Assembly (NCBI RefSeq): GCF_016026235.1
Contig: NZ_CP065613.1
Length of the DNA stretch: 64,000 nt
Reading direction: 5' to 3' (one strand)
DNA from: Escherichia coli
GTDB taxonomy: Bacteria > Pseudomonadota > Gammaproteobacteria > Enterobacterales > Enterobacteriaceae
Numbering within the stretch: position 1 is the stretch's first letter; every line of letters starts with the position of its first letter. Shown here in pieces: positions 13,336 to 34,096 of the stretch. The notes under the pieces are model-generated. The model was not told where the DNA came from. It saw only the letters and a list, made by a program, of their open reading frames with translations, and searched no databases. The translations under genes and the position numbers were made by a program.

Positions 13336-13342
13336 GGCAAAC

Positions 13343-13420: not shown

Positions 13421-13436
13421 AGCCAATCTGCCCCCA

Positions 13437-13682: not shown

Positions 13683-13902
13683 TTTCTTCTCATCACATAA
13701 AAAAACGGCGCTAGTTTACGCCCTGTGAGTCCGTAAGCAAACCAGGTTAACGATTGCGTGAAAATTAACCATTGCATTGTCAACGTAAAGCAGTATCATG
13801 CGGCGGCTCGAAAAAAGGGTAAGCACGTTATTATGTTAAGGTAACAGACGTGTCGTACGTATTGGGTTCCCTCACCCCAATGGTTAATCAAAAAGGTACA
13901 AT

Positions 13903-14568: not shown

Positions 14569-14640
14569 AGGTTCGTTATCAGAGTTGTGATAAGATGGAT
14601 GAATGAGCCGTTATGGCCGTTTATCGAAAGGAAGAAGTCA

Positions 14641-15198: not shown

Positions 15199-15201
15199 GT
15201 T

Positions 15202-16419
15202 TTAAGATGATGAGACGGCCTCAGGGACGTGTTCCGGAGGCCGTTTTTTTAATCGCCACGTCAGTAATAACGCGATTGCGACCAGTCCCGCCGCCGCCAG
15301 ATAAATCACCGGTACGCCCGCCCAGCTCATCACCAGCCCAGCCAGTGGTCCAGTCACGCCAAGCGATAAATCCATAAATACGGTGTAAGTTGCCAGCGCC
15401 GCCCCCTGATTTTGCTGCGGAACCGCTTTTACCGCCACTACACCCAATGCCGGGAACACCAGCGAAAACCCGGCCCCCGCCAGTAAGACGCCGATTTTCG
15501 CCATCCACGGCATAGTCGCCACGCCAACCAGTAGCAGGCCGATTATCTCAACGCTAAAGCAAATCATCGCTACGTTTAAGCCGCCGATACGGTTAATGCC
15601 GTTAGGGAATAACAAACGCGTACCGACAAACGCACAGCTAAACAGCGTCAGCGCGAAAGCCGCACCGTCCCAACCTTTAGCGTCATAAAACAGCGTGATA
15701 AAGGTGGCGATGACGCCAAATCCGGCGGAAGCCAGTGCCAGCGCCATACCGTACAGCCAGACGCGCCCAAGCACCGCGCGAAACGGCAGCGGTTTGCCTT
15801 TACTGGCTTTTACCGTCGGACGCGGGAGCGCCAACAAAATGGCCACCAGCGCCACGCCCATAATGATTAACGCTAACGCCTGCAAGCCGCCCCAGTGATA
15901 AAACACGACGCCTAACGGCGCACCCATCGCCATCGCCCCGTAAGTGACAATACCGTTCCACGAAATCACCCGCCCGATATGCAGCGAGCCAACCACGCCA
16001 ACACCCCACAGGGTCGATCCCGTTCCGGCAAAACTTTGCCCAATCCCAAGGATCACGCGTCCCAGGCAAAGTAATAACAGGCTGATGACGGGCAGACTGG
16101 CGGTTAATCCTGCCGTCAGATATCCCAGACCGCTCAAAAAGCAGCCGCATAAACCGAAGACGACAATCTTTTTGGGTCCCAGCAAATCGGCGTAACGTCC
16201 GGCATGAGGGCGGCTCAGCAAGGTGGCGAAATATTGCAGGCTGATAACCAATCCTGCCCAGAAGGCGCTAAAGCCCATCACATCATGGACATAGCCCGGT
16301 AATACAGCGAGCGGCAACCCGATGGTGAGGTAGCTGGCGAAGTTAAACATGACTATAGAGACAATGCGCAAATTCAGGCGCAATCCGTTTAGCGCGGGTT
16401 CGGCTACGGGTTCGGGCAT
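15202..16419 (-). CDS. yhhS: MFS transporter YhhS
   Basis: ORF 15202..16461; start placed at ATG 16419 (MPEPVAEPALNGLRLNLRIVSIVMFNF...), 405 aa, 12-TM MFS-like hydropathy. Confidence 0.87.
   Translation of the reverse strand: MPEPVAEPALNGLRLNLRIVSIVMFNFASYLTIGLPLAVLPGYVHDVMGFSAFWAGLVISLQYFATLLSRPHAGRYADLLGPKKIVVFGLCGCFLSGLGYLTAGLTASLPVISLLLLCLGRVILGIGQSFAGTGSTLWGVGVVGSLHIGRVISWNGIVTYGAMAMGAPLGVVFYHWGGLQALALIIMGVALVAILLALPRPTVKASKGKPLPFRAVLGRVWLYGMALALASAGFGVIATFITLFYDAKGWDGAAFALTLFSCAFVGTRLLFPNGINRIGGLNVAMICFSVEIIGLLLVGVATMPWMAKIGVLLAGAGFSLVFPALGVVAVKAVPQQNQGAALATYTVFMDLSLGVTGPLAGLVMSWAGVPVIYLAAAGLVAIALLLTWRLKKRPPEHVPEAVSSS
15213..15250 (+). terminator. Putative intrinsic terminator after dcrB (overlaps yhhS 3' end)
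   Basis: acGGCCTCagggacgtgttccgGAGGCCgttttttt. Confidence 0.5.
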
Positions 16420-16550
16420 GAGGATCACCACATTTTTACAACAGTGTTTCATTTTTACCACGTGCTGACGTGAAAATCAGCAGTAAGAATCAGAATATTG
16501 CTGGCGTGACTCCCGCTACACTTAACACAAAAAGTCACAAGGAAGCCCCA

Positions 16551-17600
16551 ATGGAAACCCCTCAACCCGATAAAACGGGCATGCACATTCTGCTCAAGTT
16601 GGCCTCGCTGGTAGTGATCCTCGCGGGCATTCACGCAGCGGCAGATATCATTGTGCAGCTGTTACTGGCGCTGTTTTTTGCCATCGTCCTCAACCCGCTC
16701 GTTACCTGGTTTATTCGTCGGGGAGTACAACGCCCCGTTGCCATTACGATTGTAGTGGTGGTGATGCTGATCGCACTAACCGCGCTGGTCGGCGTACTGG
16801 CGGCATCGTTTAACGAATTTATCTCTATGCTGCCGAAGTTTAATAAGGAGCTGACGCGCAAACTTTTTAAATTGCAGGAGATGTTGCCTTTTCTTAATTT
16901 GCATATGTCGCCGGAGCGAATGCTGCAGCGGATGGACTCGGAAAAAGTGGTTACCTTCACCACAGCGCTAATGACCGGGCTTTCCGGGGCAATGGCGAGC
17001 GTGCTTTTGCTGGTGATGACCGTAGTTTTTATGCTGTTTGAAGTGCGCCACGTCCCTTACAAAATGCGTTTTGCGCTGAATAACCCACAGATTCACATCG
17101 CAGGATTACACCGCGCACTTAAAGGCGTTTCGCACTATCTTGCATTGAAGACGCTACTCAGTTTATGGACAGGTGTCATCGTCTGGCTGGGGCTGGAGCT
17201 GATGGGGGTGCAGTTTGCGCTGATGTGGGCAGTACTGGCGTTTTTGCTCAACTACGTGCCCAATATCGGCGCGGTAATTTCCGCCGTACCGCCAATGATT
17301 CAGGTGCTGCTGTTTAATGGTGTTTACGAATGTATTCTGGTCGGCGCATTGTTTTTAGTGGTCCATATGGTCATCGGCAATATTTTAGAACCACGGATGA
17401 TGGGCCATCGCCTGGGGATGTCCACCATGGTGGTATTTCTTTCATTGTTAATTTGGGGATGGCTGCTCGGCCCGGTAGGGATGCTACTTTCGGTGCCATT
17501 AACCAGCGTGTGTAAAATCTGGATGGAAACCACCAAAGGCGGTAGCAAACTGGCGATTTTACTGGGGCCAGGCAGACCGAAAAGTCGGTTACCGGGATGA
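16551..17600 (+). CDS. yhhT: AI-2E family transporter YhhT
   Basis: ORF 16470..17600; start placed at ATG 16551 after AAGGAAG RBS (METPQPDKTGMHILLKLASLVVILAGIHAAAD...), 349 aa. Confidence 0.87.
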   Translation: METPQPDKTGMHILLKLASLVVILAGIHAAADIIVQLLLALFFAIVLNPLVTWFIRRGVQRPVAITIVVVVMLIALTALVGVLAASFNEFISMLPKFNKELTRKLFKLQEMLPFLNLHMSPERMLQRMDSEKVVTFTTALMTGLSGAMASVLLLVMTVVFMLFEVRHVPYKMRFALNNPQIHIAGLHRALKGVSHYLALKTLLSLWTGVIVWLGLELMGVQFALMWAVLAFLLNYVPNIGAVISAVPPMIQVLLFNGVYECILVGALFLVVHMVIGNILEPRMMGHRLGMSTMVVFLSLLIWGWLLGPVGMLLSVPLTSVCKIWMETTKGGSKLAILLGPGRPKSRLPG

Positions 17601-17654
17601 GGCGACAAGTGATACGATACGCACTTTCATTTTCCATTAAACGTTGGCCCTGAT

Positions 17655-18242
17655 ATGTATCGGATAGTTCTGGGGAAAGTTTCGACCTTAAGCGCAGCTC
17701 CACTGCCACCGGGTTTACGCGAGCAAGCACCGCAAGGTCCACGACGCGAACGCTGGCTGGCGGGGCGTGCATTGCTTTCGCACACGCTTTCCCCGCTACC
17801 GGAGATCATCTATGGCGAACAAGGCAAACCTGCATTCGCGCCGGAAACGCCGCTATGGTTCAACTTAAGCCATAGCGGTGACGATATCGCTCTGCTGTTG
17901 AGCGATGAAGGCGAAGTCGGCTGCGATATCGAAGTGATTCGCCCGCGCGCCAACTGGCGCTGGCTGGCGAACGCCGTGTTCAGCCTCGGGGAACACGCTG
18001 AAATGGACGCCGTGCATCCTGATCAGCAACTGGAAATGTTCTGGCGCATCTGGACGCGCAAAGAAGCCATCGTTAAACAGCGTGGCGGCAGCGCCTGGCA
18101 AATCGTCAGCGTAGATAGCACCTATCACTCCTCGCTGTCAGTCAGCCATTGTCAGCTGGAAAATTTAAGTCTGGCGATCTGCACCCCTACCCCCTTTACG
18201 CTCTCCGCCGACAGTGTGCAATGGATCGATTCAGTTAACTGA
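17655..18242 (+). CDS. acpT: 4'-phosphopantetheinyl transferase AcpT
   Basis: 195 aa MYRIVLGKVSTLSAAPLPPGLREQAPQGPRRERWLAGRALL...; W-x-KEA motif (WTRKEAIVK). Confidence 0.9.
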   Translation: MYRIVLGKVSTLSAAPLPPGLREQAPQGPRRERWLAGRALLSHTLSPLPEIIYGEQGKPAFAPETPLWFNLSHSGDDIALLLSDEGEVGCDIEVIRPRANWRWLANAVFSLGEHAEMDAVHPDQQLEMFWRIWTRKEAIVKQRGGSAWQIVSVDSTYHSSLSVSHCQLENLSLAICTPTPFTLSADSVQWIDSVN

Positions 18243-18287
18243 TCCGCCCACCCGACTGCCCATCTATTGATCCAGAACAGGTAATCA

Positions 18288-18315
18288 GTATGACGAATAC
18301 TTAAAATCGTCATAC
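18288..18315 (+). promoter_or_regulatory. NikR operator (GTATGA-N16-TCATAC) in the nikA promoter
   Basis: GTATGAcgaatacttaaaatcgTCATAC, a perfect dyad with 16-bp spacer 38 bp upstream of nikA ATG; matches the known NikR operator architecture. Confidence 0.8.
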
Positions 18316-18352
18316 TGATTTCCGCCATCTATTTTAATCCATTGGGGTTACC

Positions 18353-19927
18353 ATGCTCTCCACACTCCGCCGCACTCTATTTGCGCTGCTGGCTTGTGCG
18401 TCTTTTATCGTCCATGCCGCTGCACCAGATGAAATCACCACCGCCTGGCCGGTGAATGTCGGGCCACTAAACCCGCACCTTTACACGCCTAACCAGATGT
18501 TCGCCCAGAGCATGGTTTATGAACCATTGGTGAAGTATCAGGCAGACGGTTCGGTGATCCCGTGGCTGGCAAAAAGCTGGACCCATTCGGAAAATGGTAA
18601 AACCTGGACCTTCACCCTGCGTGATGACGTGAAATTCTCTAACGGCGAACCGTTTGATGCAGAGGCGGCGGCAGAAAACTTCCGCGCAGTGCTCGATAAC
18701 CGTCAACGTCACGCCTGGCTGGAGCTGGCAAACCAGATTGTTGATGTTAAAGCACTCAGTAAAACAGAGCTGCAAATCACCCTGAAAAGCGCCTACTATC
18801 CTTTCCTGCAAGAACTGGCCCTGCCGCGCCCTTTCCGTTTTATCGCCCCCTCGCAGTTTAAAAACCATGAAACCATGAACGGAATTAAAGCGCCGATTGG
18901 CACCGGACCGTGGATTTTGCAGGAATCGAAACTGAATCAGTACGATGTCTTCGTCCGTAACGAAAACTACTGGGGCGAAAAGCCGGCGATTAAGAAGATC
19001 ACTTTTAACGTCATCCCGGACCCGACTACCCGCGCGGTGGCGTTTGAAACTGGCGATATCGACCTGCTGTACGGAAACGAAGGGTTATTACCGCTCGATA
19101 CCTTCGCCCGCTTTAGCCAGAATCCGGCTTACCACACCCAACTGTCACAGCCGATCGAAACCGTGATGCTGGCGCTCAATACCGCCAAAGCCCCCACCAA
19201 CGAGCTGGCAGTACGTGAAGCTCTTAATTACGCGGTAAACAAAAAATCGCTGATTGATAACGCGTTGTATGGCACCCAGCAGGTCGCCGACACCCTGTTT
19301 GCCCCTTCTGTGCCCTACACCAACCTCGGCCTGAAACCGCGCCAGTACGATCCGCAGAAAGCAAAAGAGTTGCTGGAAAAAGCCGGTTGGACGCTGCCTG
19401 CGGGCAAAGACATCCGCGAGAAAAATGGTCAGCCGCTGCGCATTGAACTGTCGTTCATCGGCACCGATGCGTTAAGCAAATCGATGGCGGAAATCATTCA
19501 GGCTGATATGCGCCAGATTGGCGCAGATGTCTCGCTGATTGGCGAAGAAGAGAGCAGTATCTATGCTCGTCAGCGCGACGGTCGTTTTGGCATGATTTTC
19601 CACCGCACCTGGGGCGCGCCATACGATCCACACGCCTTCCTCAGTTCAATGCGCGTACCGTCACACGCTGACTTCCAGGCACAGCAAGGATTAGCCGACA
19701 AACCGCTGATTGATAAAGAGATCGGCGAAGTGCTGGCGACCCATGACGAAACGCAACGTCAGGCGCTGTATCGCGACATTCTGACCCGTCTGCATGACGA
19801 GGCGGTTTATCTGCCTATCAGTTACATCTCAATGATGGTGGTATCAAAACCGGAGCTGGGTAACATCCCCTACGCGCCGATCGCCACCGAAATTCCGTTC
19901 GAACAGATTAAACCGGTGAAACCTTAA
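18353..19927 (+). CDS. nikA: Nickel ABC transporter periplasmic binding protein NikA
   Basis: 524 aa with signal peptide [41 protein letters not shown]... Confidence 0.95.
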
Positions 19928-20867
19928 TGTTGCGTTACGTATTACGCCGCTTTCTGCTGCTGATCCCGATGGTGCTCGCCGCCTCGGTGATCATTTTTCT
20001 GATGCTGCGCCTCGGTACCGGCGACCCGGCGCTCGATTATTTGCGTCTGTCTAACCTGCCGCCGACGCCGGAGATGCTGGCCTCTACCCGCACCATGCTG
20101 GGACTGGATCAGCCGCTGTACGTCCAGTACGGCACCTGGTTGTGGAAGGCGCTGCATCTTGACTTTGGTATCTCATTCGCCAGCCAACGCCCGGTACTGG
20201 ACGATATGCTGAACTTCCTGCCCGCCACGCTGGAACTTGCAGGTGCGGCGCTGGTATTAATTCTGCTCACTTCCGTACCGCTCGGTATCTGGGCGGCGCG
20301 CCATCGCGACCGTCTGCCGGATTTCGCCGTACGTTTCATCGCATTTCTTGGCGTGTCGATGCCTAACTTCTGGCTGGCGTTTTTACTGGTGATGGCGTTT
20401 TCGGTGTATCTGCAATGGCTACCCGCGATGGGCTACGGCGGCTGGCAGCACATCATTTTGCCTGCGGTTTCCATTGCCTTTATGTCGCTGGCGATTAACG
20501 CGCGTTTACTGCGCGCCAGTATGCTGGACGTCGCCGGTCAGCGTCACGTCACCTGGGCGCGTCTGCGCGGCCTGAACGACAAACAGACCGAACGCCGCCA
20601 TATTCTGCGCAATGCCTCGCTGCCGATGATCACCGCCGTGGGGATGCACATCGGCGAACTGATTGGCGGGACGATGATTATCGAAAACATCTTTGCCTGG
20701 CCGGGCGTCGGGCGCTATGCGGTGTCGGCGATTTTTAACCGTGACTATCCGGTGATTCAGTGCTTTACGCTGATGATGGTGGTGGTTTTTGTGGTCTGTA
20801 ATTTGATTGTCGATTTGCTCAACGCCGCGCTGGACCCGCGCATTCGTCGTCATGAAGGAGCGCACGC

Positions 20868-20871
<4 letters not shown>
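19927..20871 (+). CDS. nikB: Nickel ABC transporter permease NikB
   Basis: 314 aa [34 protein letters not shown]...; start overlaps nikA stop. Confidence 0.95.
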
Positions 20872-23675
<2,804 letters not shown>

Positions 23676-23824
23676 CACCTACCAACGCGCCGTTATTTCC
23701 TTACGGCGCAGTAAACTTCTGACACATATCGACTCACGTCACATTTTTTTGATCACGATTTGGTCCCTCAAAATGTGAGACGCTTCGATCCTCTTTTTCT
23801 CCCGTTCACCTACTATACGCTTGA

Positions 23825-23852
23825 AGTTGTCCATGATTGTCCATAGACAACT
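23825..23852 (+). promoter_or_regulatory. Candidate operator: 7-bp inverted repeat plus tandem TTGTCCAT half-sites immediately upstream of the GntR-family regulator
   Basis: AGTTGTCcatgaTTGTCCATaGACAACT located 13 bp upstream of the regulator ATG; function inferred only. Confidence 0.3.
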
Positions 23853-23864
23853 GTAAATGTTCAG

Positions 23865-24620
23865 GTGCGCGCCATGAAATCATTAAGTAAGTCGTCACAA
23901 ATACCGCTCTATCAACAAGTGGTGGAGTGGATAAGAGAAAGTATTTATACCGGAGATCTGGTGGAAGACGATCGCATTCCTTCGGAATACCAGATTATGG
24001 ATATGCTGGAAGTGAGTCGGGGAACCGTTAAAAAAGCGGTCGCCCAACTGGTAAAAGAAGGCGTGTTAATACAGGTCCAGGGTAAGGGAACATTTGTCAA
24101 AAAAGAGAACGTGGCATATCCGTTAGGTGAAGGATTATTGTCATTCGCGGAATCGCTGGAAAGCCAGAAAATACATTTTACCACTGAAGTTATTACGTCA
24201 CGGATTGAACCAGCTAATCGTTATGTGGCAGAGAAATTAAGAATAACTCCCGGTCAGGATATTCTTTACCTTGAACGCTTACGCTCAATTGGTGATGAAA
24301 AAGCGATGCTGATAGAGAACCGTATCAATATTGAGCTATGCCCCGGTATTGCGGAAATCGATTTTAATCAACACAATTTATTTCCAACAATAGAAAGTTT
24401 GTCGCAAAGAAAAATTCGTTACTCGGAAAGTCGCTATGCCGCGCGATTAATTGGTAATGAACGTGGTCATTTTTTAGATATCAGTGAAGACGCACCCGTT
24501 TTGCATCTGGAGCAGTTAGTCTTTTTCTCCCGAGGATTACCCATTGAGTTTGGCAACGTCTGGTTAAAAGGAAATAAATATTATCTTGGCACCGTACTGC
24601 AACGGCGGGAAGTGAGTTAA
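23865..24620 (+). CDS. GntR/HutC-family transcriptional regulator (wHTH + UTRA effector domain)
   Basis: 251 aa; N-terminal IPSEYQIMDMLEVSRGTVKKAVAQLVKEGVLIQVQGKGTFV is a typical GntR HTH; alternative ATG at 23874. Confidence 0.8.
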   Translation: MRAMKSLSKSSQIPLYQQVVEWIRESIYTGDLVEDDRIPSEYQIMDMLEVSRGTVKKAVAQLVKEGVLIQVQGKGTFVKKENVAYPLGEGLLSFAESLESQKIHFTTEVITSRIEPANRYVAEKLRITPGQDILYLERLRSIGDEKAMLIENRINIELCPGIAEIDFNQHNLFPTIESLSQRKIRYSESRYAARLIGNERGHFLDISEDAPVLHLEQLVFFSRGLPIEFGNVWLKGNKYYLGTVLQRREVS

Positions 24621-24644
24621 GTACACTTTTTTAAGAGGAATAAA

Positions 24645-25118
24645 ATGCAAGGCATACATTTTCAGGAAAATTATATTCAACGACTTCCGGCAGGGTTAAG
24701 CGTTGAACAGATCATCCGTCAGTTAGCGCAACCGTTGGTTGCCGCCGAGCTGGTCGTCCCTGATTTTGCCGATCACGTACTGAAACGTGAGGAGACGTAC
24801 CCAACGGGGCTGCCTACCGAACCACCGTGCGTCGCTATTCCGCACACGGACCATAAACATGTCAGGCACAATGCAATTGCCGTCGGCATCCTGCCGGAAC
24901 CGGTAGAGTTTGCCGATATGGGCGGCGATCCTGACCCCGTACCTGTCAGGGTGATTTTTTTGCTCGCCTTAAGCGAAAGTAATAAACAATTAAATGCCCT
25001 GGGCTGGATTATGGAAATGATTCAGGATACGCCCTTTATGCAAGCCCTGCTTGCGATGGAAACAACAGAAATACACACAGTAATCTTAAACAAAATGAAA
25101 GAACGAGGTGAAATATGA
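24645..25118 (+). CDS. PTS EIIA component (EIIA-2, mannitol/fructose/Ntr-type fold)
   Basis: 157 aa; active-site motif VAIPHTD (phosphorylatable His). Confidence 0.8.
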   Translation: MQGIHFQENYIQRLPAGLSVEQIIRQLAQPLVAAELVVPDFADHVLKREETYPTGLPTEPPCVAIPHTDHKHVRHNAIAVGILPEPVEFADMGGDPDPVPVRVIFLLALSESNKQLNALGWIMEMIQDTPFMQALLAMETTEIHTVILNKMKERGEI

Positions 25119-25396
25119 GTCAAACCATTTTATTTGTCTGCGCCACGGGTATTGCCACATCCACGGCGGTAACAGAAAAAGTCATGGAATATTGTAAAGA
25201 GCACGGTCTTAACGTCAATTATTCCCAAACCAACGTTGCCTCTTTACCTGGAAATACTGATGGCGTAGCACTGGTAGTCTCAACGACTAAAGTGCCTTAT
25301 GAACTCGACGTCCCGGTAGTTAACGGCTTGCCGATTATTACCGGTATTGGCGAAGAGAAAGTACTGGCGCAAATTGTTTCGATCCTTAAAAATTAA
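25115..25396 (+). CDS. PTS EIIB component, galactitol (GatB)-type
   Basis: 93 aa MSQTILFVCATGIATSTAVTEK...; N-terminal Cys-containing phosphotransfer motif as in GatB/SgcB. Confidence 0.8.
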   Translation: MSQTILFVCATGIATSTAVTEKVMEYCKEHGLNVNYSQTNVASLPGNTDGVALVVSTTKVPYELDVPVVNGLPIITGIGEEKVLAQIVSILKN

Positions 25397-25472
25397 TTAA
25401 TAATAATTAATTTCAACCCACTCCATCAGGCGCTAACGCGAGGTGCGCTCTCGCCTGAAAAAGAGGTTTATT

Positions 25473-26831
25473 ATGAACGATATCGCGCATACCCTCTATA
25501 ATATTGTGCAATATATATTGGGATTTGGCCCGACGGTAATGTTGCCGTTGGTGTTATTTATTCTTGCTCTCTGTTTTAAAGTAAAACCCGCTAAAGCCTT
25601 ACGTTCGTCATTAACAGTCGGCATTGGTTTTGTCGGTATTTATGCCATTTTCGATATTCTGACCAGCAATGTCGGGCCAGCGGCCCAGGCGATGGTTGAA
25701 CGCACCGGAATTAATTTACCGGTGGTAGATTTAGGCTGGCCGCCGCTTTCCGCTATTACATGGGGTTCGCCAATTGCCCCGTTTGTTATTCCCCTGACCA
25801 TTCTGATTAACGTGGCGATGCTGGCGTTAAATAAAACCCGTACCGTTGACGTAGATATGTGGAACTACTGGCATTTTGCCCTTGCTGGTACGTTGGTTTA
25901 TTACAGCACCGGCAGCCTGTTCTTTGGTTTGCTGGCGGCGGCGATTGCTGCGGTGGTAGTACTTAAACTCGCCGACTGGTCTGCGCCACTGGTACAAAAA
26001 TACTTTGGACTGGAAGGGATCTCATTGCCGACGCTCTCTTCGGTGGTGTTCTTCCCGGTCGGTCTGCTGGTCGACAAAATCATCGACCATATCCCCGGCC
26101 TCAATCGTATTCATATCGACCCGGAAACCGTACAGAAAAAGTTTGGCATCTTCGGCGAACCGATGATGGTTGGCACTATTCTGGGCATACTGCTCGGCGT
26201 GATTGCAGGATACGATTTCAAAAAAGTGTTGCTGCTTGGCATCAGCATTGGCGGTGTGATGTTCATCCTGCCACGCATGGTTCGCATCCTGATGGAAGGT
26301 TTATTACCGCTGTCTGAAGCCATTAAAAAGTATCTCAATGCCAAATACCCTGACCGTGACGATCTCTATATCGGACTGGATATCGCCGTTGCCGTAGGTA
26401 ATCCGGCGATTATCTCCACCGCCCTGCTGCTAACGCCAATCTCGGTCTTTATCGCGTTTGTCCTCCCAGGTAATGAAGTCCTGCCGCTTGGCGACCTTGC
26501 CAACCTGGCGGTAATGGCGTCGATGATTGCTTTAGCCAGCCGTGGCAATATTTTCCGCACCGTTCTGGCGGCGATCCCGGTGATTATTGCCGACCTGTGG
26601 ATTGCGACTAAAATCGCACCGTTTATTACCGGCATGGCGAAAGACGTTAACTTCAAATTTGCCGAAGGCTCCAGCGGCCAGGTTTCCAGTTTCCTTGATG
26701 GCGGTAACCCGTTCCGCTTCTGGCTGCTGGAAATCTTCAACGGCAATATCATCGCCATTGGTCTGGTGCCGGTTATCGCCCTGGTACTGTATGGCATTTT
26801 CCGAATGACGCGGAGCACGGTTTATGCCTGA
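25473..26831 (+). CDS. PTS EIIC permease, galactitol (GatC) family
   Basis: ORF 25443..26831; start placed at ATG 25473 after AAAGAGG RBS; motifs LGFGPTVMLP, GIGFVGI, GPAAQAM, DLGWP, IPGLNRI, KFGIFGEP, LPLGDLA, GNIFRT align to GatC as I recall it. Confidence 0.85.
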   Translation: MNDIAHTLYNIVQYILGFGPTVMLPLVLFILALCFKVKPAKALRSSLTVGIGFVGIYAIFDILTSNVGPAAQAMVERTGINLPVVDLGWPPLSAITWGSPIAPFVIPLTILINVAMLALNKTRTVDVDMWNYWHFALAGTLVYYSTGSLFFGLLAAAIAAVVVLKLADWSAPLVQKYFGLEGISLPTLSSVVFFPVGLLVDKIIDHIPGLNRIHIDPETVQKKFGIFGEPMMVGTILGILLGVIAGYDFKKVLLLGISIGGVMFILPRMVRILMEGLLPLSEAIKKYLNAKYPDRDDLYIGLDIAVAVGNPAIISTALLLTPISVFIAFVLPGNEVLPLGDLANLAVMASMIALASRGNIFRTVLAAIPVIIADLWIATKIAPFITGMAKDVNFKFAEGSSGQVSSFLDGGNPFRFWLLEIFNGNIIAIGLVPVIALVLYGIFRMTRSTVYA

Positions 26832-28332
26832 TAACAGCGCAGCTATCGTTATCGATATTGGCACCACCAATTGCAAAGTCACCTGCTTTTCCTGCCTGGA
26901 CGCAACGACGTTGGGCGCGCATAAATTCGTGACGGCAAAGCAGATCTCCCCACAGGGCGATGTCGATTTCGATATCGACGCCCTCTGGCAGGAGGTCCGC
27001 CAGGCGATAGCGCAACTGAACGCCGCTTCGCCGCTGCCAGTCAGACGGATCAGCATTGCCAGTTTTGGCGAATCAGGCGTGTTCCTTGACGAGCATGGCG
27101 AGATCCTGACGCCAATGCTGGCATGGTATGACCGTCGCGGTGAAGAGTATCTGGCAACGCTTAGCGAGGCAGACAGTGCGGCACTTTATGACATCTGCGG
27201 TCTACCACTACACAGCAATTACTCTGCCTTCAAAATGCGCTGGTTGCTGGAACATTACCCGCTGCGTAATCGCCGCGGCCTGCGCTGGCTACATGCGCCG
27301 GAAGTGCTGCTCTGGCGGCTGACTGGCGAACAGCGCACGGATATCACCTTAGCCAGCCGCACGCTGTGTCTGGACGTGCGCAAAGGCGAATGGTCAGCGA
27401 AAGCGGCGGCGTTGTTACACGTTCCCTGTACGGCATTTGCGCCATTGGTGCAGCCAGGCGAGCACGCCGGATGGGTCAGCGAGTCACTTTGCAAGACGCT
27501 TGGGTTCTCGCAACCGGTCAGCGTGACGCTGGCCGGACATGACCATATGGTGGGTGCGCGAGCGTTGCAGATGATGCCAGGCGATATCCTTAACTCGACG
27601 GGGACCACGGAAGGCATTCTGCAACTGGATACACAACCGACGCTGGATGAACAGGCCAAACGTGACAAGCTGGCAAACGGCTGTTACTCACTTGCCAACC
27701 AGTTCACCCTGTTTGCGTCGCTGCCCGTGGGCGGTTTCGCGCTGGAGTGGCTGCGCAACACGTTCCGGCTAACCGATGAGGAGATCGCCGCATCACTTAC
27801 TCGCGGACATGCTGATTATCTGGCGGGGAATTGGTTGCTCGATGACATTCCCGTCTTTATTCCACATCTTCGCGGTTCGGGTTCGCCCTATAAAAATCGC
27901 CATACCCGTGGATTATTTTATGGGCTTGGCGATACGTTAAGTATCGACATGTTAATTGCCAGCGTATCACTGGGATTAACCATGGAATTTGCCAACTGCT
28001 TCGCCTGTTTTAACGTGCCTGGCACCAGCGCGTTAAAAGTGATCGGTCCGGCAACCCATAATCCTCTTTGGCTGCAATTAAAGGCGGATATTTTACAGCG
28101 TCCGGTTGAAGCAATTGCATTTAACGAGGCGGTTTCTGTCGGAGCATTATTAACCGCCGCACCGGATATTCCACCGCCGCCAGTCGCTATAGCCCAACGT
28201 TTGTTACCGAATCGGGCGAGATACCATCAATTACAGCGTTATCAGCACAAATGGAAAAGCTGGTATCAGTTGAAATTACAACAAGAAGGCGTGATGCCAT
28301 TACATCATCGGGAGGAACACTATGTTGAATAA
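26824..28332 (+). CDS. FGGY-family carbohydrate kinase (substrate unknown)
   Basis: 502 aa; N-terminal AIVIDIGTTNCK, FGGY signature-1-like YSAFKMRWLLEH, C-terminal GTSALKVIGP; 8-nt overlap with EIIC gene. Confidence 0.75.
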   Translation: MPDNSAAIVIDIGTTNCKVTCFSCLDATTLGAHKFVTAKQISPQGDVDFDIDALWQEVRQAIAQLNAASPLPVRRISIASFGESGVFLDEHGEILTPMLAWYDRRGEEYLATLSEADSAALYDICGLPLHSNYSAFKMRWLLEHYPLRNRRGLRWLHAPEVLLWRLTGEQRTDITLASRTLCLDVRKGEWSAKAAALLHVPCTAFAPLVQPGEHAGWVSESLCKTLGFSQPVSVTLAGHDHMVGARALQMMPGDILNSTGTTEGILQLDTQPTLDEQAKRDKLANGCYSLANQFTLFASLPVGGFALEWLRNTFRLTDEEIAASLTRGHADYLAGNWLLDDIPVFIPHLRGSGSPYKNRHTRGLFYGLGDTLSIDMLIASVSLGLTMEFANCFACFNVPGTSALKVIGPATHNPLWLQLKADILQRPVEAIAFNEAVSVGALLTAAPDIPPPPVAIAQRLLPNRARYHQLQRYQHKWKSWYQLKLQQEGVMPLHHREEHYVE

Positions 28333-28591
28333 AACCGTGGAGGTCAGAAACAGTACTGGCCTGCATGCACGTCCGGCGGCCTGTCTGGCGAAAGCCGCCA
28401 AAAAATATAGCTGTAAAGTGACGCTGCACTATGAGGGTAATGATATTAATGCCACCAGCATGATGAATATTATGCGCGCCGGAATAAAAGGCGGAAAAAC
28501 GGTGGAAATACGCTGCGACGGTGATGATGAAAACGAGGCCATACAGACTCTCACCGACTTATTTCGCGACCGCTTCGGTGAAGCTGAATAA
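28322..28591 (+). CDS. HPr-family phosphocarrier protein (operon-specific paralog)
   Basis: 89 aa MLNKTVEVRNSTGLHARPAACLAKAAKKY...; His-15 motif GLHARPA. Confidence 0.8.
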   Translation: MLNKTVEVRNSTGLHARPAACLAKAAKKYSCKVTLHYEGNDINATSMMNIMRAGIKGGKTVEIRCDGDDENEAIQTLTDLFRDRFGEAE

Positions 28592-28622
28592 TTAACTGAT
28601 ATTAAAAGATGAGGTTTTCAAT

Positions 28623-29483
28623 ATGCCATTAGTTAATGGACGGATACTGCTCGACCGCATTCAGGAAAAACGGGTATTAGCGGGCGCATTTAATACCACC
28701 AATCTGGAGACGACAATTTCAATTTTAAACGCTATTGAGCGTTCGGGATTACCCAACTTCATTCAGATTGCGCCAACCAATGCACAACTCTCGGGATACG
28801 ATTACATTTATGAAATCGTGAAACGTCACGCCGATAAAATGGATGTTCCGGTCAGTCTTCATCTGGATCACGGGAAAACTCAGGAGGATGTGAAACAGGC
28901 GGTGCGCGCGGGCTTTACCTCGGTCATGATTGACGGTGCCGCATTCTCTTTTGAAGAGAATATCGCTTTCACCCAGGAAGCTGTCGATTTCTGTAAATCC
29001 TATGGTGTACCGGTTGAAGCGGAGCTGGGGGCGATTCTCGGCAAAGAAGATGATCACGTCAGCGAAGCCGATTGCAAAACGGAACCGGAAAAGGTGAAGA
29101 CCTTTGTCGAGCGTACCGGTTGCGACATGCTGGCAGTTTCTATTGGCAACGTTCATGGCCTGGACGATATACCGCGTATCGATATCCCCCTGCTGAAGCG
29201 CATTGCCGAAGTCTGTCCGGTGCCGTTGGTTATTCACGGCGGCTCCGGTATCGCCCCGGAGATATTACGCAGCTTTGTTAATTATCGCGTCGCTAAAGTA
29301 AATATCGCCAGCGATCTGCGCAAAGCGTTTATCACCGCCGTCGGCAAAGCGTATGTGAATAATCACAACGAGGCGAATCTGGCACGAGTCATGGCATCAG
29401 CAAAAAACGCCGTCGAGGAAGATGTGTATAGCAAAATCCTGATGATGAATGAGGGGCATCGGTTGGTTAGAAAGGCATCTTAA
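28623..29483 (+). CDS. Class II ketose-bisphosphate aldolase (GatY/KbaY/FbaA family)
   Basis: 286 aa; metal-binding motifs LHLDHG and IHGGSG. Confidence 0.85.
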   Translation: MPLVNGRILLDRIQEKRVLAGAFNTTNLETTISILNAIERSGLPNFIQIAPTNAQLSGYDYIYEIVKRHADKMDVPVSLHLDHGKTQEDVKQAVRAGFTSVMIDGAAFSFEENIAFTQEAVDFCKSYGVPVEAELGAILGKEDDHVSEADCKTEPEKVKTFVERTGCDMLAVSIGNVHGLDDIPRIDIPLLKRIAEVCPVPLVIHGGSGIAPEILRSFVNYRVAKVNIASDLRKAFITAVGKAYVNNHNEANLARVMASAKNAVEEDVYSKILMMNEGHRLVRKAS

Positions 29484-29495
29484 GAGCCACAAAAA

Positions 29496-29530
29496 TATAG
29501 CGGCGCAACAGAAATTGTTGGGCCGCTATA
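29496..29530. terminator. Hairpin terminator between convergent aldolase and hicB-like genes
   Basis: TATAGCGGC-gCAACAgaaatTGTTGg-GCCGCTATA, 9-bp outer stem with nested inner palindrome. Confidence 0.6.
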
Positions 29531-29532
29531 AG

Positions 29533-29892
29533 TTATAAATGATTCAAACGCTCATTCAGTGTTTCAATAATATAGGTATTAACAGAGACTTGTTGCTGCG
29601 CAGCCGCATTATTAAGGCGTTCACTCAGCGATTCTGGATAGCGTAACGTAAAGGTCTTAATCTTTTCTGTACGCGCATACGGCTCAATACCCGCAGCTTT
29701 ACAATCCTCAAGATACTCTAGCAGGGAAAGTTCCCCTTCTTTTTGCAGCCCCTGAATGCTGTCAGAGACAAAATCACAATAACCTGACAAGCCCAGGAAT
29801 TTGCCACGAAATGCATTCAGTTCTGGCACGTAAGTGATAACAGCAGGTTGCCCGGCAATCTCCATTGAGTTTGGCGTCTTCAGTTTGATCAT
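29533..29892 (-). CDS. HicB-like antitoxin (C-terminal ribbon-helix-helix-like DNA-binding tail)
   Basis: 119 aa MIKLKTPNSMEIAGQPAVITYVPELNAFRGKFLGLSGYCDF...RYPESLSERLNNAAAQQQVSVNTYIIETLNERL; 4-bp overlap with upstream small ORF. Confidence 0.6.
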   Translation of the reverse strand: MIKLKTPNSMEIAGQPAVITYVPELNAFRGKFLGLSGYCDFVSDSIQGLQKEGELSLLEYLEDCKAAGIEPYARTEKIKTFTLRYPESLSERLNNAAAQQQVSVNTYIIETLNERLNHL

Positions 29893-30164
29893 GGTTTTAC
29901 CCCTATACTTAGTAACCAGTCACGCACGCTTTCTACAGCGCCTTTATCGGTATCTGGCGACGGATGAGGCCGATGGAAACACGCAACGCTCATATTTAGT
30001 ATGAACTTACAACGCGAACCTCTTCCTTCCTTAATTTCTCCGCCTAATGCTTTAACCTGTGACTCTATATCAGACCACTTGATCCCTTGAGGAACAGGAG
30101 TTTTAAATATTTGATCCAATGTATTTTTTTGTTTCTTCCGTAAAGCCTGTACCTTGGTTCTCAT
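29889..30164 (-). CDS. HicA-like mRNA-interferase toxin
   Basis: 91 aa; ...WSDIESQVKALGGE...GSRCKF...HRPHP...AVESVRDWLLSIGV resembles HicA (W-x-ES...GS...PRHP...) pattern; upstream of and overlapping the HicB-like gene. Confidence 0.55.
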   Translation of the reverse strand: MRTKVQALRKKQKNTLDQIFKTPVPQGIKWSDIESQVKALGGEIKEGRGSRCKFILNMSVACFHRPHPSPDTDKGAVESVRDWLLSIGVKP

Positions 30165-30176
30165 GGCATGTCCTTA

Positions 30177-30224
30177 TGACTTCACTTTATGACATCAATA
30201 GTATGACATCACAGTATGAAGTCA
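30177..30224 (-). promoter_or_regulatory. Candidate promoter/operator of the hicAB-like pair: 8-bp inverted repeat flanking two TATGACATCA direct repeats
   Basis: TGACTTCActtTATGACATCAatagTATGACATCAcagtaTGAAGTCA, immediately upstream of the toxin start codon. Confidence 0.4.
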
Positions 30225-30236
30225 AGTTTCCCTTCC

Positions 30237-31364
30237 TTACGCCATTGTCCCAATCGTCTTCCTGAATCGCAGCAGTGCGATGGTGAAAAACGCGCCGCCA
30301 ATTGCCATCAGCGTCAGGAACTGCGGCCAGACGATTTCGAATCCGGCACCCCGGTAGAGAATGGCCTGCGCGAGGCTAACAAAGTGTGTCGTCGGCATGG
30401 TCAGCATAATGTCCTGCACCATCTGCGGCATACTTTCGCGCGGCGTGGATCCACCGGAAAGCATTTGCAGCGGCAGCAGCACCAGAATCACCAGCAGCCC
30501 CAGTTGCGGCATTGAACGCGCTATCGTCCCCATAAAAATGCCGATTGACGTGGTGGCAAACAGACTGAGCGCCACGCCCAGCATAAACAGCGGGATCGAG
30601 CCTTCAATCGGTACGCCCAGCACGCCTTTCACCATCAGCACCAGCGATAATCCCGATACCACCAGCACCACTAGCCCCATCGACCAGACCTTCGCCATCA
30701 TGATCTCAAACGGCGTTATCGGCATCACCAGTAAGTGTTCCACCGTGCCGTGTTCACGCTCGCGGATCAGCGCCGATCCGGTCAATACAATCGCCAGCAT
30801 GGTAATGTTGTTGATGATTGCCATCACCCCGCCAAACCACGCGGGGTCGAGGTTCGGGTTAAAGCGCATCCGGGTTTCCAGCGATACCAACGGTTCGCTG
30901 TTATCACGGTAGCGCGCGACAAAGCTGTTCACTTCACCGTTGATAATATTCTGGATATACCCGTTGCCGGTAAATGCCTGGCTCATGCGCGTGGCATCGA
31001 CGTTCACCTGAATATCCGGCTGGCGTCCGGCGAGGACATCACGCTGAAAATTAGGCGGAATATTTATCGCAAAGGTATAGCGTCCGGCGTCCAGTCCGGC
31101 ATCCATCTCATCGGCGGTGATCATCTCCGGTGGCAAAAACCACGGGCGATAGAAGCTGTTAACGATCCGGTTCGATAACTGCGATTGATCCATATCGGCA
31201 ATGGCGATCGGCGCGAGGTTCAACGATCCTGGCGTGACGGTCGCTGACGAATACACCGACACCGTAAACGAGAAGACAATCAGCGTTAGCATCGCTTTAT
31301 CACCGAGCAGACTGCGCAACTCTTTGATACCCAGATTAAAAATATTGCGTAAATGGCGCATCAT
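30237..31364 (-). CDS. yhhJ: ABC-2 type transporter permease YhhJ
   Basis: ORF 30237..31445; start placed at tandem ATG ATG (31364/31361) directly after GGAGGG and overlapping rbbA stop; [26 protein letters not shown]... Confidence 0.88.
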
Positions 31365-34096
31365 CCCTCCTGTTTTTTCAGCAGCAGGATGCTTAAGCCC
31401 ATCACCAGCGGTATGGCTATCAGCAACGGGATAAAAAGTTGCCATAAATCAGTCAGATCCAACGCTTTCGAGAACGTTCCGCGGGCGATAGTCAGAAAAT
31501 GACTGGTCGGGTAAACCTCGCCGATCCAACGTCCCGGCCCTTCCAGCGAAGCTACCGGATCGATCATCCCGGAAAACTGTGTCGCCGGGATCAACGTGAT
31601 AATCGCCGTACCGAAAATGGCGGCAATCTGGCTTTTCATAAAGGTGGAGATCAGCAGCCCCATTACGGTGGCGATGATGATATACAGCAGCGCCGCCAGG
31701 GTGAGCGTCAGGAAACTGCCTTTATGCGGCACGCCAAACACAAACACCGACAGGCCACAGAGCAGGAAAAAGTTCAGCATCCCCAGCGCGATGTACGGCA
31801 GCTGTTTGCCAAGCAAAAATTCGCTACGCGTGGTGGGAGTCACGTAAAGGTTGATAATCGACCCAAGCTCTTTTTCCCGCACCACGCTAAGGGCGCTTAG
31901 CATTGACGGGATCATCATCAGCAGAAGCGGGATCACCGCCGGAACAATCGCTGGCAGGCTTTTTACGTCCGGGTTATAACGATAGCGTGTCTCAATATTC
32001 ATCAGCCCGCTTTGGCTGGCGGGCGTGGATTGTCGGCTCGCCACATCCTGAAGCCAGCTCTGGTGCATGGCCTGCACGTAACCTTTTACCGTTTCGGCAC
32101 GACTCGGCATTGCACCGTCGATCCAGACGCCGAGTTCCACGGGCGTACCACGCGCGATATCGCGCCCGAAATTGGGTGGGATCTCAATTGCCACCGTGAT
32201 ATCGCCCGCACGCATCCGACGATCAAGCTCGTCATAACTGGTGAGCGGCGGCTGTTCGATAAAGTAACGGGAACCAGAGAGATTGAGCGTCCACGCCTGG
32301 CTACTGACGGTCTGGTCGCGGTCGAGCACCGCAAAGCGCAGGTTTTCCACATCCATACTGATGCCGTAGCCCATTATCAGCATCAGGATCACCGTTCCCA
32401 TCAGCGCCAGCGTCGAACGCACCGGATCGCGGCGCAGTTCCAGTGCTTCGCGGCGGCTGTAGCTAAACAGACGGCGCAGGCTAAATCCCTGACGCGGCGC
32501 ATGGGTGGTGTCATGTACCACGGGCGGCGCTTCGGCTTCGTTGCTCTGCCCTGCCGCCTCCTGTAAATAGGCGATAAATGCCTCTTCCAGACTGGCGGCT
32601 CCGCGTTTCTCAACCAGTTCCTGCGGTGTACCGCTGGCGAGCACTTTTCCGGCGTGCATCAGTGAGATACGGTCACAACGTTCCGCTTCGTTCATAAAGT
32701 GGGTGGAGATGAAGATAGTCACTTTGTCCTGACGCGAGAGATCGACCATCAACTGCCAGAACATATCCCTCGCCACCGGATCGACGCCAGAAGTAGGTTC
32801 ATCGAGGATTAACATCTCCGGGCGATGAATCACCGCCACCGCCAGCGAAAGCCGCTGGCGAATGCCGAGCGGCAATGACTCCGGCAGAACATCTTCAACG
32901 TCGTTGAGTTTAAAACGCTCGCTCATTTCAGCCACTCGCGCGGGAATTTCCGCTTCCGGGATGTGAAACAAACGGGCATGTAACTCAAGGTTTTGCCGCA
33001 CGGTGAGTTCGTTATAGAGCGAAAACGCCTGCGACATATAGCCCACCCGACGGCGGGTATCGATATCTTTTGGATCAACCGGTTGCCCGAACAGCCACGC
33101 CTCACCTTCGCTGGCGGGCAGCAGTCCGGTGAGCATTTTCATGGTGGTGGATTTACCGCAGCCGTTCGAACCAAGAAAACCAAAAATCTCCCCGCGTGGA
33201 ATGCGGAAATTAACGTGATCAACGGCAACGAAGGAACCAAAACGCATGGTCAGATCGCGCGCTTCGATGGCAATCTCTGCGTTTTCAGGTTGATACGGTG
33301 GGATCACTACCGCCTGATGCGCCTGGCGTTGCGCTTGCGGTAACAGATTTATAAATGCTTCTTCCAGCGTGGCGCTTTGCGTTTGCTGCCGCATCTCTTC
33401 GGCGCTGCCAGTTGCCAACACTTCTCCGGCATTCATCGCCACCAACCAGTCGAAGCGTTCCGCCTCTTCCATATAGGCCGTGGCGACCAGAACGCTCATA
33501 TTGCTCTGCCGCTGGCGAATACTGTCGATCAGATCCCAGAACTGGGCGCGGGAGAGCGGGTCAACCCCCGTCGTAGGCTCATCAAGAATCAACAGTTCCG
33601 GGTCGTGGATTAACGCACAGCACAGCCCCAGTTTTTGCTTCATCCCGCCGGAGAGTTTCCCTGCCGGACGATCGCGAAACGGTGCTAACCCGGTGCTGGT
33701 CAGCAGCTCATTAATTCGCACTTCCCGCTCCGCTTTGTCGTGACCGAACAGGCGAGCGAAAAAATCGACATTTTCATACACCGATAAGGTGTGGTAGAGA
33801 TTTTTGCCCAGCCCCTGCGGCATCCAGGCGATGCGCGGGCAGACGTCGCGGCGATGCTTCGGGTCGCGCATATCGCCGCCCAGCACCATCACGTTGCCCT
33901 GCTCAATGACACGAGCACCGGAAATCAATGACAATAAACTCGACTTACCGACGCCGTCCGGGCCAATCAGCCCGACCATGCAGCGGGCCGGAATCTCGAG
34001 AGTGATATTGTTCAGCGCAACGGTTTTTCCATAATGCTGGCTCACGCCCGCCAGTTGCGCGACAGGCGGGACGGGAACCAGTTCCAGATGCGTCAT
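31361..34096 (-). CDS. rbbA: Ribosome-associated ATPase RbbA (tandem ABC ATPase domains fused to ABC-2 permease)
   Basis: 911 aa; two Walker A sites ([18 protein letters not shown]) and two LSGG signatures, C-terminal TM region. Confidence 0.93.

Follow-up and report, generated by a model that had tools for sequence, protein, structure and literature searches.

An operon of Escherichia coli that joins a Gat-family phosphotransferase system to an uncharacterised FGGY kinase and a class II aldolase

Which sugar does Escherichia coli break down with the seven genes that lie between nikR and hicB, and by which chemical steps? We analysed this operon in a 64,000-nucleotide stretch of E. coli DNA (contig NZ_CP065613.1 of assembly GCF_016026235.1), here called the window, whose positions are used throughout. 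The operon is real, intact and conserved, and it has been annotated before without an assigned function. We give about an even chance to the reading that it is self-contained, stands under catabolite control and serves the breakdown of a keto-sugar (most simply a hexulose or heptulose): a phosphotransferase system (PTS) would deliver the sugar as a monophosphate, a kinase of the FGGY family would turn this into a bisphosphate, and an aldolase would release dihydroxyacetone phosphate (DHAP) and an aldose phosphate.

The seven genes are intact and co-directional and fill positions 23874-29483 (Table 1), downstream of nikR (23274-23675), whose stop is followed by base 23676. Families were assigned by NCBIfam profile search with curated equivalog cut-offs. 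An initial annotation made from the DNA letters alone had listed seven co-directional genes with overlaps of 4, 8 and 11 nt, which proved exact (IIA/IIB, IIC/kinase and kinase/HPr, respectively), and its description of the content, a complete galactitol (Gat)-family PTS with its own HPr and no dehydrogenase or isomerase, was borne out by the open reading frames (ORFs) and by NCBIfam. From nikR to hicB no ORF for a dehydrogenase or isomerase was found, and no GatZ/KbaZ-like ORF or GatD-type polyol-phosphate dehydrogenase either; a GatD-type enzyme was seen only in related clusters of other genera.

The permease is a member of the galactitol family: residues 15-422 of IIC cover positions 1-406 of the 407 in the TIGR00827 profile, a full-length match, and the score lies below the curated cut-off of 542 bits, which makes the protein a family member and not a GatC equivalog. 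IIA and IIB gave weak but specific matches to the NCBIfam models of GatA and GatB; both missed the equivalog scores, and the PTS thus failed the test for galactitol specificity. The residues of the phospho-relay are intact, with His15 and Ser46 in HPr (which also has Arg17), a putative phospho-His66 in the AIPH motif of IIA and a putative phospho-Cys9 within FVCATG of IIB. The HPr paralog scores below the PtsH, NPr and FPr equivalog cut-offs and is therefore a distinct paralog. Orthologs of the regulator contain PF00392 and PF07702; its longest ORF begins with GTG at 23865, while ATG at 23874 is favoured by the Prokaryotic Genome Annotation Pipeline (PGAP) and by cross-genus alignment. For IIC the longest ORF begins at 25443.

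The two enzymes belong to well-known families and to none of their characterised subfamilies. Membership of the kinase in the FGGY family was seen from PF00370 and PF02782 on a 97%-identical protein (P0001), yet it reached no model of known substrate (XylB, GlpK, FucK, RhaB, GntK, LsrK, AraB), scoring 144.6 bits for XylB (cut-off 380), 126 for GlpK (590) and 119 for FucK (471). Its catalytic Asp240 stands within AGHDHM; this residue, the DxGTT motif and the GT motif align with those of GlpK, XylB, FucK and RhaB, the standard nucleotide-binding motifs are kept, and the matches in the PDB, nearest to the GlpK, GntK and XylB profiles, span the full length. Throughout the kinase family H130, H239, H241, H348 and R350 are invariant. 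The aldolase is a class II enzyme (PF01116; TIGR00167 with 221.4 bits at a cut-off of 215.6) that did not reach the GatY subfamily (239.6 bits, cut-off 383) or KbaY (182.5 bits, cut-off 542) at equivalog level. Residues D82, H83, E134, H178, H205, K225 and N227, and with them the Zn ligands and the C1-phosphate site, are invariant in the 75 family members compared, and the Zn ligands and catalytic Asp (D82, H83, H178, H205) align with those of GatY, KbaY and YdjI. Of the characterised aldolases, those nearest to it act on bisphosphates (GatY-type 240 bits, fructose-bisphosphate aldolase 237 bits), and its nearest solved structure and top PDB match is AgaY (1GVF). In the strict sense the operon is not a member of the gat/tag group, as it has neither the defining GatD and GatZ nor the equivalog scores. 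Most probably it works like a gat/tag pathway in which the kinase is a dedicated FGGY enzyme, the aldolase acts alone and belongs to a subfamily of its own, and HPr is private to the operon.

Table 1. Genes and candidate regulatory elements of the operon region (window positions)
Feature	Position	Strand	Basis
Perfect hairpin GCGCCGT-N9-ACGGCGC, just 3' of the nikR stop	23687..23709	+	inverted repeat search
Candidate CRP sites, two inverted copies AAAATGTGA-N6-TCGAT	23728-23747, 23770-23789	+	inverted repeat
Candidate -10 hexamer TACTAT	23812..23817	+	conserved TA..AT at fixed distance to operator and start codon (alignment A4)
Candidate GntR/HutC operator, inverted arms AGTTGTCCATG / CATAGACAACT around core TGTC(C/T)ATAGACA	23825..23852	+	inverted and direct repeats
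GntR/HutC regulator (UTRA effector domain), presumed operon repressor	23874-24620	+	best NCBIfam matches HutC-type, all below equivalog cut-offs; PGAP agrees
PTS IIA (PTS_EIIA_2 type)	24645-25118	+	GatA model 53.9 bits (cut-off 139); fruA IIA domain 50.5 bits
PTS IIB (PF02302 type)	25115-25396	+	GatB model 60.3 bits (cut-off 95)
PTS IIC, galactitol (Gat) family permease	25473-26831	+	TIGR00827 EIIC-GAT 476 bits, E=7.9e-143
FGGY-family carbohydrate kinase, uncharacterised subfamily (K1)	26824-28332	+	FGGY models only, all far below equivalog cut-offs
HPr-family phosphocarrier paralog	28322-28591	+	TIGR01003 103.3 bits (cut-off 47.9)
Class II (Zn) ketose-phosphate aldolase, PF01116 fold, NCBIfam PRK07998	28623-29483	+	NF005943 557 bits (cut-off 364)
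Stable hairpin between convergent aldolase and hicB genes	29496..29530		minimum free energy -22.9 kcal/mol, z=-5.6, 0/200 shuffles as stable

The evidence that carries the pathway comes from the company these genes keep in other genomes. A scan with one genome per species gave 80 loci, of which 79 were kept after a 1.3-kb fragment had been dropped; gene content was determined by a tblastn seed survey. A PRK07998-type aldolase was present at most 7 kb from the kinase in 78 of the 79 species-representative loci, and on this comparative evidence these two enzymes form the invariant core of the module. A Gat-type PTS was present in 64 loci; 41 of these were, like E. coli, devoid of a dehydrogenase, and 23 contained one to three Zn-dehydrogenases, one of them GatD-like (238 bits). 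The other 15, all actinobacterial, have an ATP-binding cassette (ABC) or major facilitator superfamily (MFS) transporter instead. A second, XylB-like FGGY kinase, which scores 305-318 bits with the xylulokinase model, stands beside the first in all 15 non-PTS loci and in none of the 64 PTS loci (Fisher p=1.9e-16). This pattern implies that PTS phosphorylation and a free-sugar kinase are interchangeable, that two kinase-type steps are needed and that the window-type kinase is not the first step on the free sugar; as far as gene content can tell, the pathway seems to require two kinase steps.

The module is spread over three phyla. In several Firmicutes (Enterococcus, Listeria, Pectinatus, Mitsuokella and Clostridium sp. 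D2Q-14, which GTDB names Anaeromonas gelatinilytica) relatives of the kinase with 35-40% identity stand in a module regulator-aldolase-IIA-IIB-IIC-kinase that has no other enzyme. Selenomonas, too, has the module without a further enzyme. The stop of IIC and the start of the kinase overlap in all six loci without dehydrogenase for which genes had been called (L005, L006, L008, L016, L017, L106). The HPr paralog accompanies 36 of the 64 PTS-type loci, some in Bacillales, and is missing from the remaining 28 and from all 15 non-PTS loci.

In the proposed pathway, phosphate would pass from the general enzyme I to the dedicated HPr paralog and on to His66 of IIA and Cys9 of IIB. The Gat-family IIC would import the sugar as a monophosphate, with the phosphate probably on the end distal to the keto group, by analogy with galactitol 1-phosphate, which corresponds to tagatose 6-phosphate. 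The FGGY kinase, translationally coupled to IIC, would then add a second phosphate from ATP, and the stand-alone class II Zn aldolase would split the ketose bisphosphate into DHAP and an aldose phosphate, glyceraldehyde 3-phosphate if the sugar is a hexulose; as both products enter glycolysis, no further enzyme would be needed. Transcription would probably start from a CRP-dependent promoter. Bound to the conserved palindrome that overlaps the transcription start, the GntR/HutC regulator would act as repressor and be relieved when its UTRA domain takes up an intermediate of the pathway. The analysis itself shows which genes are there, that they are intact, conserved and under purifying selection, how they co-occur and that motifs upstream of them are conserved; we infer which class of sugar is used, where and in which order it is phosphorylated, that a bisphosphate is formed and which parts CRP and the repressor play. 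The initial annotation had already proposed PTS uptake, a second phosphorylation by the FGGY kinase and aldol cleavage; this succession gains comparative support from the counts given above (78/79; 15/15 versus 0/64), while the second phosphorylation by the FGGY kinase is still a step that we infer. The 23 dehydrogenase-type PTS loci would follow the logic of gat, from a polyol phosphate over the ketose 6-phosphate and the 1,6-bisphosphate to the aldolase, with the FGGY kinase in the place of PfkA (PMC9720028). In strain EDL933, Z4875-Z4877 and Z4879 were reported to be up-regulated by log2 2.1-3.8 (4- to 14-fold) in bovine rumen, small-intestine and rectum contents compared to M9-glucose (PMC6199705), which fits catabolite derepression, induction, or both.

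Several variants of the module were seen along the way. In the Enterococcus avium group (Enterococcus raffinosus, malodoratus and avium; L044, L045, L048, ~11900-20100) a second cluster follows directly downstream of the Gat-PTS/kinase/aldolase module, with a PRK07998-type aldolase, a PRD/Mga regulator, a mannose-family PTS (IIA-IID), a Zn-dehydrogenase and a XylB-like FGGY kinase (350 bits); the association of PTS, FGGY kinase and PRK07998-type aldolase is therefore not a one-off. Dehydrogenase-type clusters of Enterobacterales often contain a SurE-like 5'/3'-nucleotidase/phosphatase (286 bits, above its cut-off) between HPr and the second dehydrogenase (L015/L051, L059, L060, L065, L082, L084, L089 and L091, in Pantoea, Erwinia, Raoultella and Enterobacter). 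Enterobacter cancerogenus (L025) and Pantoea sp. alder81 (L027) have the Firmicutes-type order regulator-aldolase-IIA-IIB-IIC-kinase, with 72% identity to the window in the aldolase and 93% in IIC, which hints at a rearrangement or a mosaic origin. Divergence within the operon is uneven among Enterobacterales (window 24645-28591 compared with L022, L028 and L031): IIC, IIB, aldolase and regulator are 84-96% identical, and the kinase (64-79%), IIA (60-75%) and HPr (44-81%) evolve much faster.

The upstream region was compared in 13 Enterobacterales of 12 genera whose kinases are 61-79% identical (alignment A4). The CRP-like site, the -10 element and the operator palindrome are shared by at least 11 genera. 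The TCACA and AAA.TGTGA elements of the two candidate CRP sites are invariant in all 13 sequences, and the proximal site is centred ~42 bp upstream of the presumed transcription start; their assignment to CRP is suggested by the consensus TGTGA-N6-TCACA. The candidate operator, which overlaps the presumed transcription start, contains the direct repeat TTGTCCAT twice and the palindrome TTGTC(C/T)ATAGACAA. It is nearly invariant in the alignment, whereas the surrounding DNA has diverged, and its core dodecamer stands at -28 from the start of the regulator ORF in the window and in 18 of 20 representative loci of Enterobacterales (L019-L038). To judge by this conservation, the palindrome is the probable operator of the HutC-type regulator. 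At the borders of the operon, the first hairpin of Table 1 is the likely nikR terminator and marks the left edge of the variable segment, and the last is likely the terminator of the operon. The junction with the hicAB cassette lies inside this last hairpin, and a genome carrying hicAB only aligns from 29522 on. A generic scan for promoters and terminators gave counts equal to the shuffled expectation and did not call the conserved elements, including the -10 hexamer; an Rfam scan of 20000-34000 gave no matches.

How widely the operon occurs was determined by megablast of positions 23200-30300 against 5426 complete E. coli genomes. At a threshold of at least 80% of the query, the cluster was found in 1631 genomes (~30%), and every match was chromosomal. 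It corresponds to ECs4349-ECs4355 in O157:H7 Sakai, to Z4874-Z4880 in EDL933 and to ECOLIN_RS19900-RS19930 in Nissle 1917, and none of the seven genes is disrupted in the window, Sakai, KE47 or Nissle. Among 25 matching genomes sampled in even steps, five states of the locus were seen: the cluster with hicAB (3, e.g., O157:H7-like strains), the cluster without hicAB (5, uropathogenic and avian pathogenic strains), hicAB only (6), the nikR and yhhJ stop codons 8 nt apart (1), and a match to the nikR flank only (10). One genome of the last kind that was examined, the K-12 derivative JM83, carries rhsB-yhhH-ISEc1 between nikR and yhhJ and not the cluster; the initial annotation had placed rhsB at this site in K-12 and would have given up its reading had the cluster been found there. 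The closest complete genome, FDAARGOS_943 (L001), is 99.97% identical over 7.6 kb with two differences only, a CAG>TAG nonsense change in the regulator (window 24078) and a +1 T frameshift in IIC (25515), so that a near-identical strain has an inactivated copy.

The genes nikR and yhhJ converge, and the variable segment begins and ends exactly at their stop codons; in every locus state that was compared, the conserved left flank stops at 23673-23676. The cluster occupies this nikR/yhhJ position in Citrobacter amalonaticus and Escherichia whittamii as well. Protein identity between C. amalonaticus and the window is 86-95% in the flanks and 75-96% in the cluster; for IIC it is 96%, and ~90% in Klebsiella oxytoca and Cedecea. 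Compared with a phylogroup B2 strain, synonymous divergence (dS) is 0.03-0.18 in the cluster and 0.16-0.19 in nikE and nikR, and six of the seven genes have a ratio of nonsynonymous to synonymous divergence (dN/dS) of 0.02-0.24, the values of IIC and the aldolase being ~0.02; IIB shows no nonsynonymous change at all. The GC content is 42-59% in the cluster and 51-62% in the flanks. No integrase, transposase, tRNA target or flanking direct repeats were found among the genes and junctions examined at the locus. A mobile genomic island was considered and rejected, given the lack of mobility genes and repeats, the shared site in Citrobacter and a dS like that of the flanks; with ~30% of genomes carrying the cluster and purifying selection acting on it, the view of the initial annotation that it is a strain-specific island at an insertion hotspot did not hold. 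A dS close to that of the flanking genes and a low dN/dS point to ancestral presence with repeated loss, and the simplest reading of these comparisons is that the cluster is an old resident of the site under purifying selection that was lost or replaced in many lineages.

The neighbouring hicB/hicA type II toxin-antitoxin pair (29533-30164, - strand), between the aldolase gene and yhhJ, is an independent cassette: it alone adjoins nikR in some genomes, and B2 strains carry the PTS cluster without it. Loci without hicAB have a repetitive extragenic palindromic (REP)-like element and a hairpin on the side proximal to yhhJ. The nikR stop codon (23673-23675) reads TAA where the cluster is present or the site is empty, and TGA in K-12 (rhsB) and in genomes with hicAB only (L003 and L010 were compared); as it varies with the state of the locus, the recombination boundary lies within the last nikR codons.

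Among known systems, the E. coli galactitol genes gatYZABCD are similar in their Gat-family IIA, IIB and IIC, in a PF01116 class II aldolase that splits a ketohexose bisphosphate into DHAP and glyceraldehyde 3-phosphate, and in a second phosphorylation between PTS and aldolase. However, gat has GatD and GatZ and borrows PfkA (PMC9720028), whereas the window operon lacks a dehydrogenase and GatZ, brings a dedicated FGGY kinase and an HPr of its own, and has a GntR regulator where gat has the DeoR-type GatR. The D-tagatose cluster tagKTH-gatYZ of Klebsiella and Salmonella and the fructose operon fruBKA likewise use a PTS to form a ketose monophosphate, a dedicated kinase to form the 1,6-bisphosphate, and an aldolase. 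The kinases TagK and FruK belong to the PfkB family, and fruB provides a private HPr-like carrier. Their fructose-family PTS gives a 1-phosphate for a 1-phosphate kinase (PMC9720028), in contrast to the Gat-family PTS and FGGY kinase of the window. The fuc and rha systems (FucK/FucA, RhaB/RhaD) also pair an FGGY kinase with a DHAP-dependent metal aldolase, and the HD and FG.xG motifs are common to their kinases and that of the window; they differ in that the kinases turn free ketoses into 1-monophosphates, uptake is by a permease and an isomerase is required. FucA and RhaD moreover have a different aldolase fold (PF00596). YdjH and YdjI resemble the window enzymes as a kinase and PF01116-fold class II aldolase of a non-glycolytic accessory pathway; YdjH, however, is a PfkB-type and not an FGGY kinase, YdjI cleaves an acid-sugar 1-monophosphate (it is annotated as octuluronate-1-phosphate aldolase in K-12), and there is no PTS. 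The tag cluster of Nissle and other B2 strains (accC-yhdT) is, like the window operon, accessory and B2-enriched and leads a ketohexose into glycolysis via a GatY-like class II aldolase, but it has an ABC transporter, a ~320 aa non-FGGY sugar kinase and another locus and relies on the host PfkA; once it is deleted, Nissle no longer grows on D-tagatose or consumes it (PMC9720028).

An orthologous cluster exists in Salmonella enterica, STM3779-STM3785 (GntR-IIA-IIB-IIC-FGGY-aldolase-HPr), with a kinase 63% identical to that of the window, at another chromosomal site and with the order of aldolase and HPr swapped. One study describes it as an AT-rich island, repressed by H-NS, that subspecies I acquired and that is needed for "unknown carbohydrate utilization" (PMC3604774); in 2024 it still stood under "unknown sugars" (PMC11000858). 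Full-text literature searches found no functional study of the cluster. A characterised pathway with known substrate for the kinase or aldolase, on which the initial annotation would have yielded, did not turn up either, and both enzymes missed the cut-offs of the equivalog models of known specificity.

Going one step further, we put forward, with rather less than even confidence, that the kinase represents an FGGY subfamily of its own, with a phosphorylated ketose as the physiological substrate, and that together with the PRK07998-type aldolase it forms an unrecognised route of double phosphorylation and then cleavage for a rare ketose and its polyols, found over Enterobacterales, Firmicutes and Actinobacteria, with the first phosphate coming interchangeably from a Gat-family PTS or a XylB-like kinase. 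Under this proposal D-psicose (allulose), sedoheptulose or another heptulose, and D-sorbose are candidate substrates; D-psicose is among the Nissle-specific carbon sources still without assigned genes (PMC7924626), a lead and not evidence. The active-site motifs of the kinase, AGHDHM and FGESG, compare with AGHDTQ and ASHDTA in FucK and RhaB, respectively, and with FGVDG and WGVDF, while the actinobacterial partner kinase carries the XylB motifs GGGDNAA and GQxH. For the pathway proposed above this suggests that the distal phosphate comes from the PTS or the partner kinase and the C1 phosphate from the window-type kinase.

A number of observations weigh against the pathway. The family profile of the kinase scores 171 bits with glycerol, 164 with gluconate and 158 with xylulose kinases versus 88 with FucK and 70 with RhaB, and since the nearest neighbours at this level are not FucK and RhaB, the motif argument for a 1-kinase is weak; equivalents of GlpK Glu84 and Tyr135 are retained as well. 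As to the regiochemistry of the kinase, similarity points both ways, the motifs to FucK/RhaB and the profile search to GlpK/GntK/XylB. In FbaA, GatY and KbaY the arginine of a DPR motif binds the distal phosphate. This arginine is not conserved in the PRK07998-type family, where NLAR replaces the DPR of GatY and KbaY and a basic residue stands one position further on in only 52 of 75 members; the monophosphate-specific YdjI has PFLH here, and the window family has its own K141 and R233. No FGGY kinase is known for phosphorylated sugars, the nine substrates in a 2011 survey all being unphosphorylated (PMC3245297). Moreover, the Salmonella ortholog was reported to be repressed by H-NS (PMC3604774), and under such repression laboratory cultures may hardly express the operon. 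Because of the lost DPR motif, the GlpK/GntK/XylB profile neighbours and the lack of a phosphate-accepting FGGY precedent, we rate the pathway no higher than stated at the outset.

Some of the same observations would be explained by cleavage before the second phosphorylation: the PTS, or the XylB-like kinase in Actinobacteria, would form a ketose 1-phosphate, the aldolase would release DHAP and a free aldose (D-glyceraldehyde, erythrose), and the FGGY kinase would act on that aldose like a triokinase. We consider this main rival unlikely. In its favour, PF01116 aldolases acting on 1-monophosphates exist (YdjI, 6OFU, is among the PDB matches and 34% identical to the window aldolase), the loss of DPR, the closeness to glycerol kinases with the GlpK Glu84/Tyr135 equivalents and the unphosphorylated substrates of known FGGY kinases (PMC3245297) all agree with it, and the count of two kinase steps fits equally well. 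Yet the partner kinase (305-350 bits to the xylulokinase model) would then have to phosphorylate C1 beside the keto group, while xylulokinases phosphorylate the distal carbon; the GatD-like enzyme by analogy yields a ketose 6-phosphate, unusable in such a route; and the kinase has the HD and FG.xG motifs of ketose kinases and not GDQQ and QRET of GlpK. The tight translational coupling of IIC and kinase is a softer sign that the kinase acts on the PTS product. Another possibility concerns the HPr paralog, which might serve the kinase instead of or besides the transporter, by regulating it through phosphorylation or as phosphoryl donor. HPr phosphorylates and regulates glycerol kinase in Firmicutes, and the DhaM/DhaL system is a precedent for phosphoryl donation; the 11-nt overlap of the kinase and HPr genes, the presence of the paralog in 36 of 64 PTS-type loci, including some Bacillales, and the fact that no other genes of the cluster evolve as fast in Enterobacterales as those for HPr, IIA and kinase are consistent with it. 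Still, the kinase works without HPr in the 28 PTS-type and 15 non-PTS loci that have no paralog, its nucleotide-binding motifs are standard, and the order is kinase-aldolase-HPr in Salmonella, Klebsiella and others, which makes this role highly improbable.

It is likewise very unlikely that the operon is a redundant second system for D-tagatose or galactitol that performs gat/tag chemistry (tagatose 6-phosphate to tagatose 1,6-bisphosphate to DHAP and glyceraldehyde 3-phosphate) with non-orthologous parts. The PTS components do match the GatA, GatB and GatC models best, the aldolase after its own family matches the GatY subfamily best (240 bits) with AgaY as top PDB match, and related clusters include a GatD-like dehydrogenase; however, all Gat and GatY cut-offs are missed by wide margins, GatD and GatZ are absent from the window, and O157:H7 and B2 strains already have gat genes, which would make a further galactitol system superfluous. 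D-tagatose, the obvious candidate, is disfavoured and unlikely as substrate, as Nissle deleted for the tag (ABC) cluster neither grows on it nor consumes it, aerobically or anaerobically, with the operon intact (PMC9720028), an indirect argument in which non-induction is possible. Finally, the operon could be a cryptic or decaying remnant without current catabolic role in E. coli, mostly silent and lost lineage by lineage. Its absence from ~70% of complete genomes, the several alternative states of the locus, the inactivated copy in FDAARGOS_943, the H-NS repression in Salmonella (PMC3604774) and the fact that no phenotype was ever assigned to it would be expected of a remnant, but the intact genes in four strains, the low dN/dS, above all in IIC and aldolase, the regulatory motifs conserved across genera, the induction in bovine gut contents (PMC6199705) and the maintenance of the module across three phyla speak for a functional system, and we regard decay as quite unlikely.

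The operon is intact in O157:H7, in most sampled B2 and extraintestinal pathogenic strains and in the probiotic Nissle 1917, with an ortholog in Salmonella enterica subsp. I; being absent from K-12, it escaped standard genetics. It is among the few complete-looking sugar pathways of these pathogens without an assigned substrate, and its transcription rises in bovine gut contents. From the comparison of genomes comes a testable hypothesis, an FGGY kinase acting on a ketose phosphate, together with a short list of candidates and a conserved promoter and operator as a possible reporter. If true, the phosphorylated-ketose specificity would be the first in the FGGY family and would widen the known specificity range of this large kinase family, and a niche-related accessory trait of gut E. 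coli and Salmonella would be explained.

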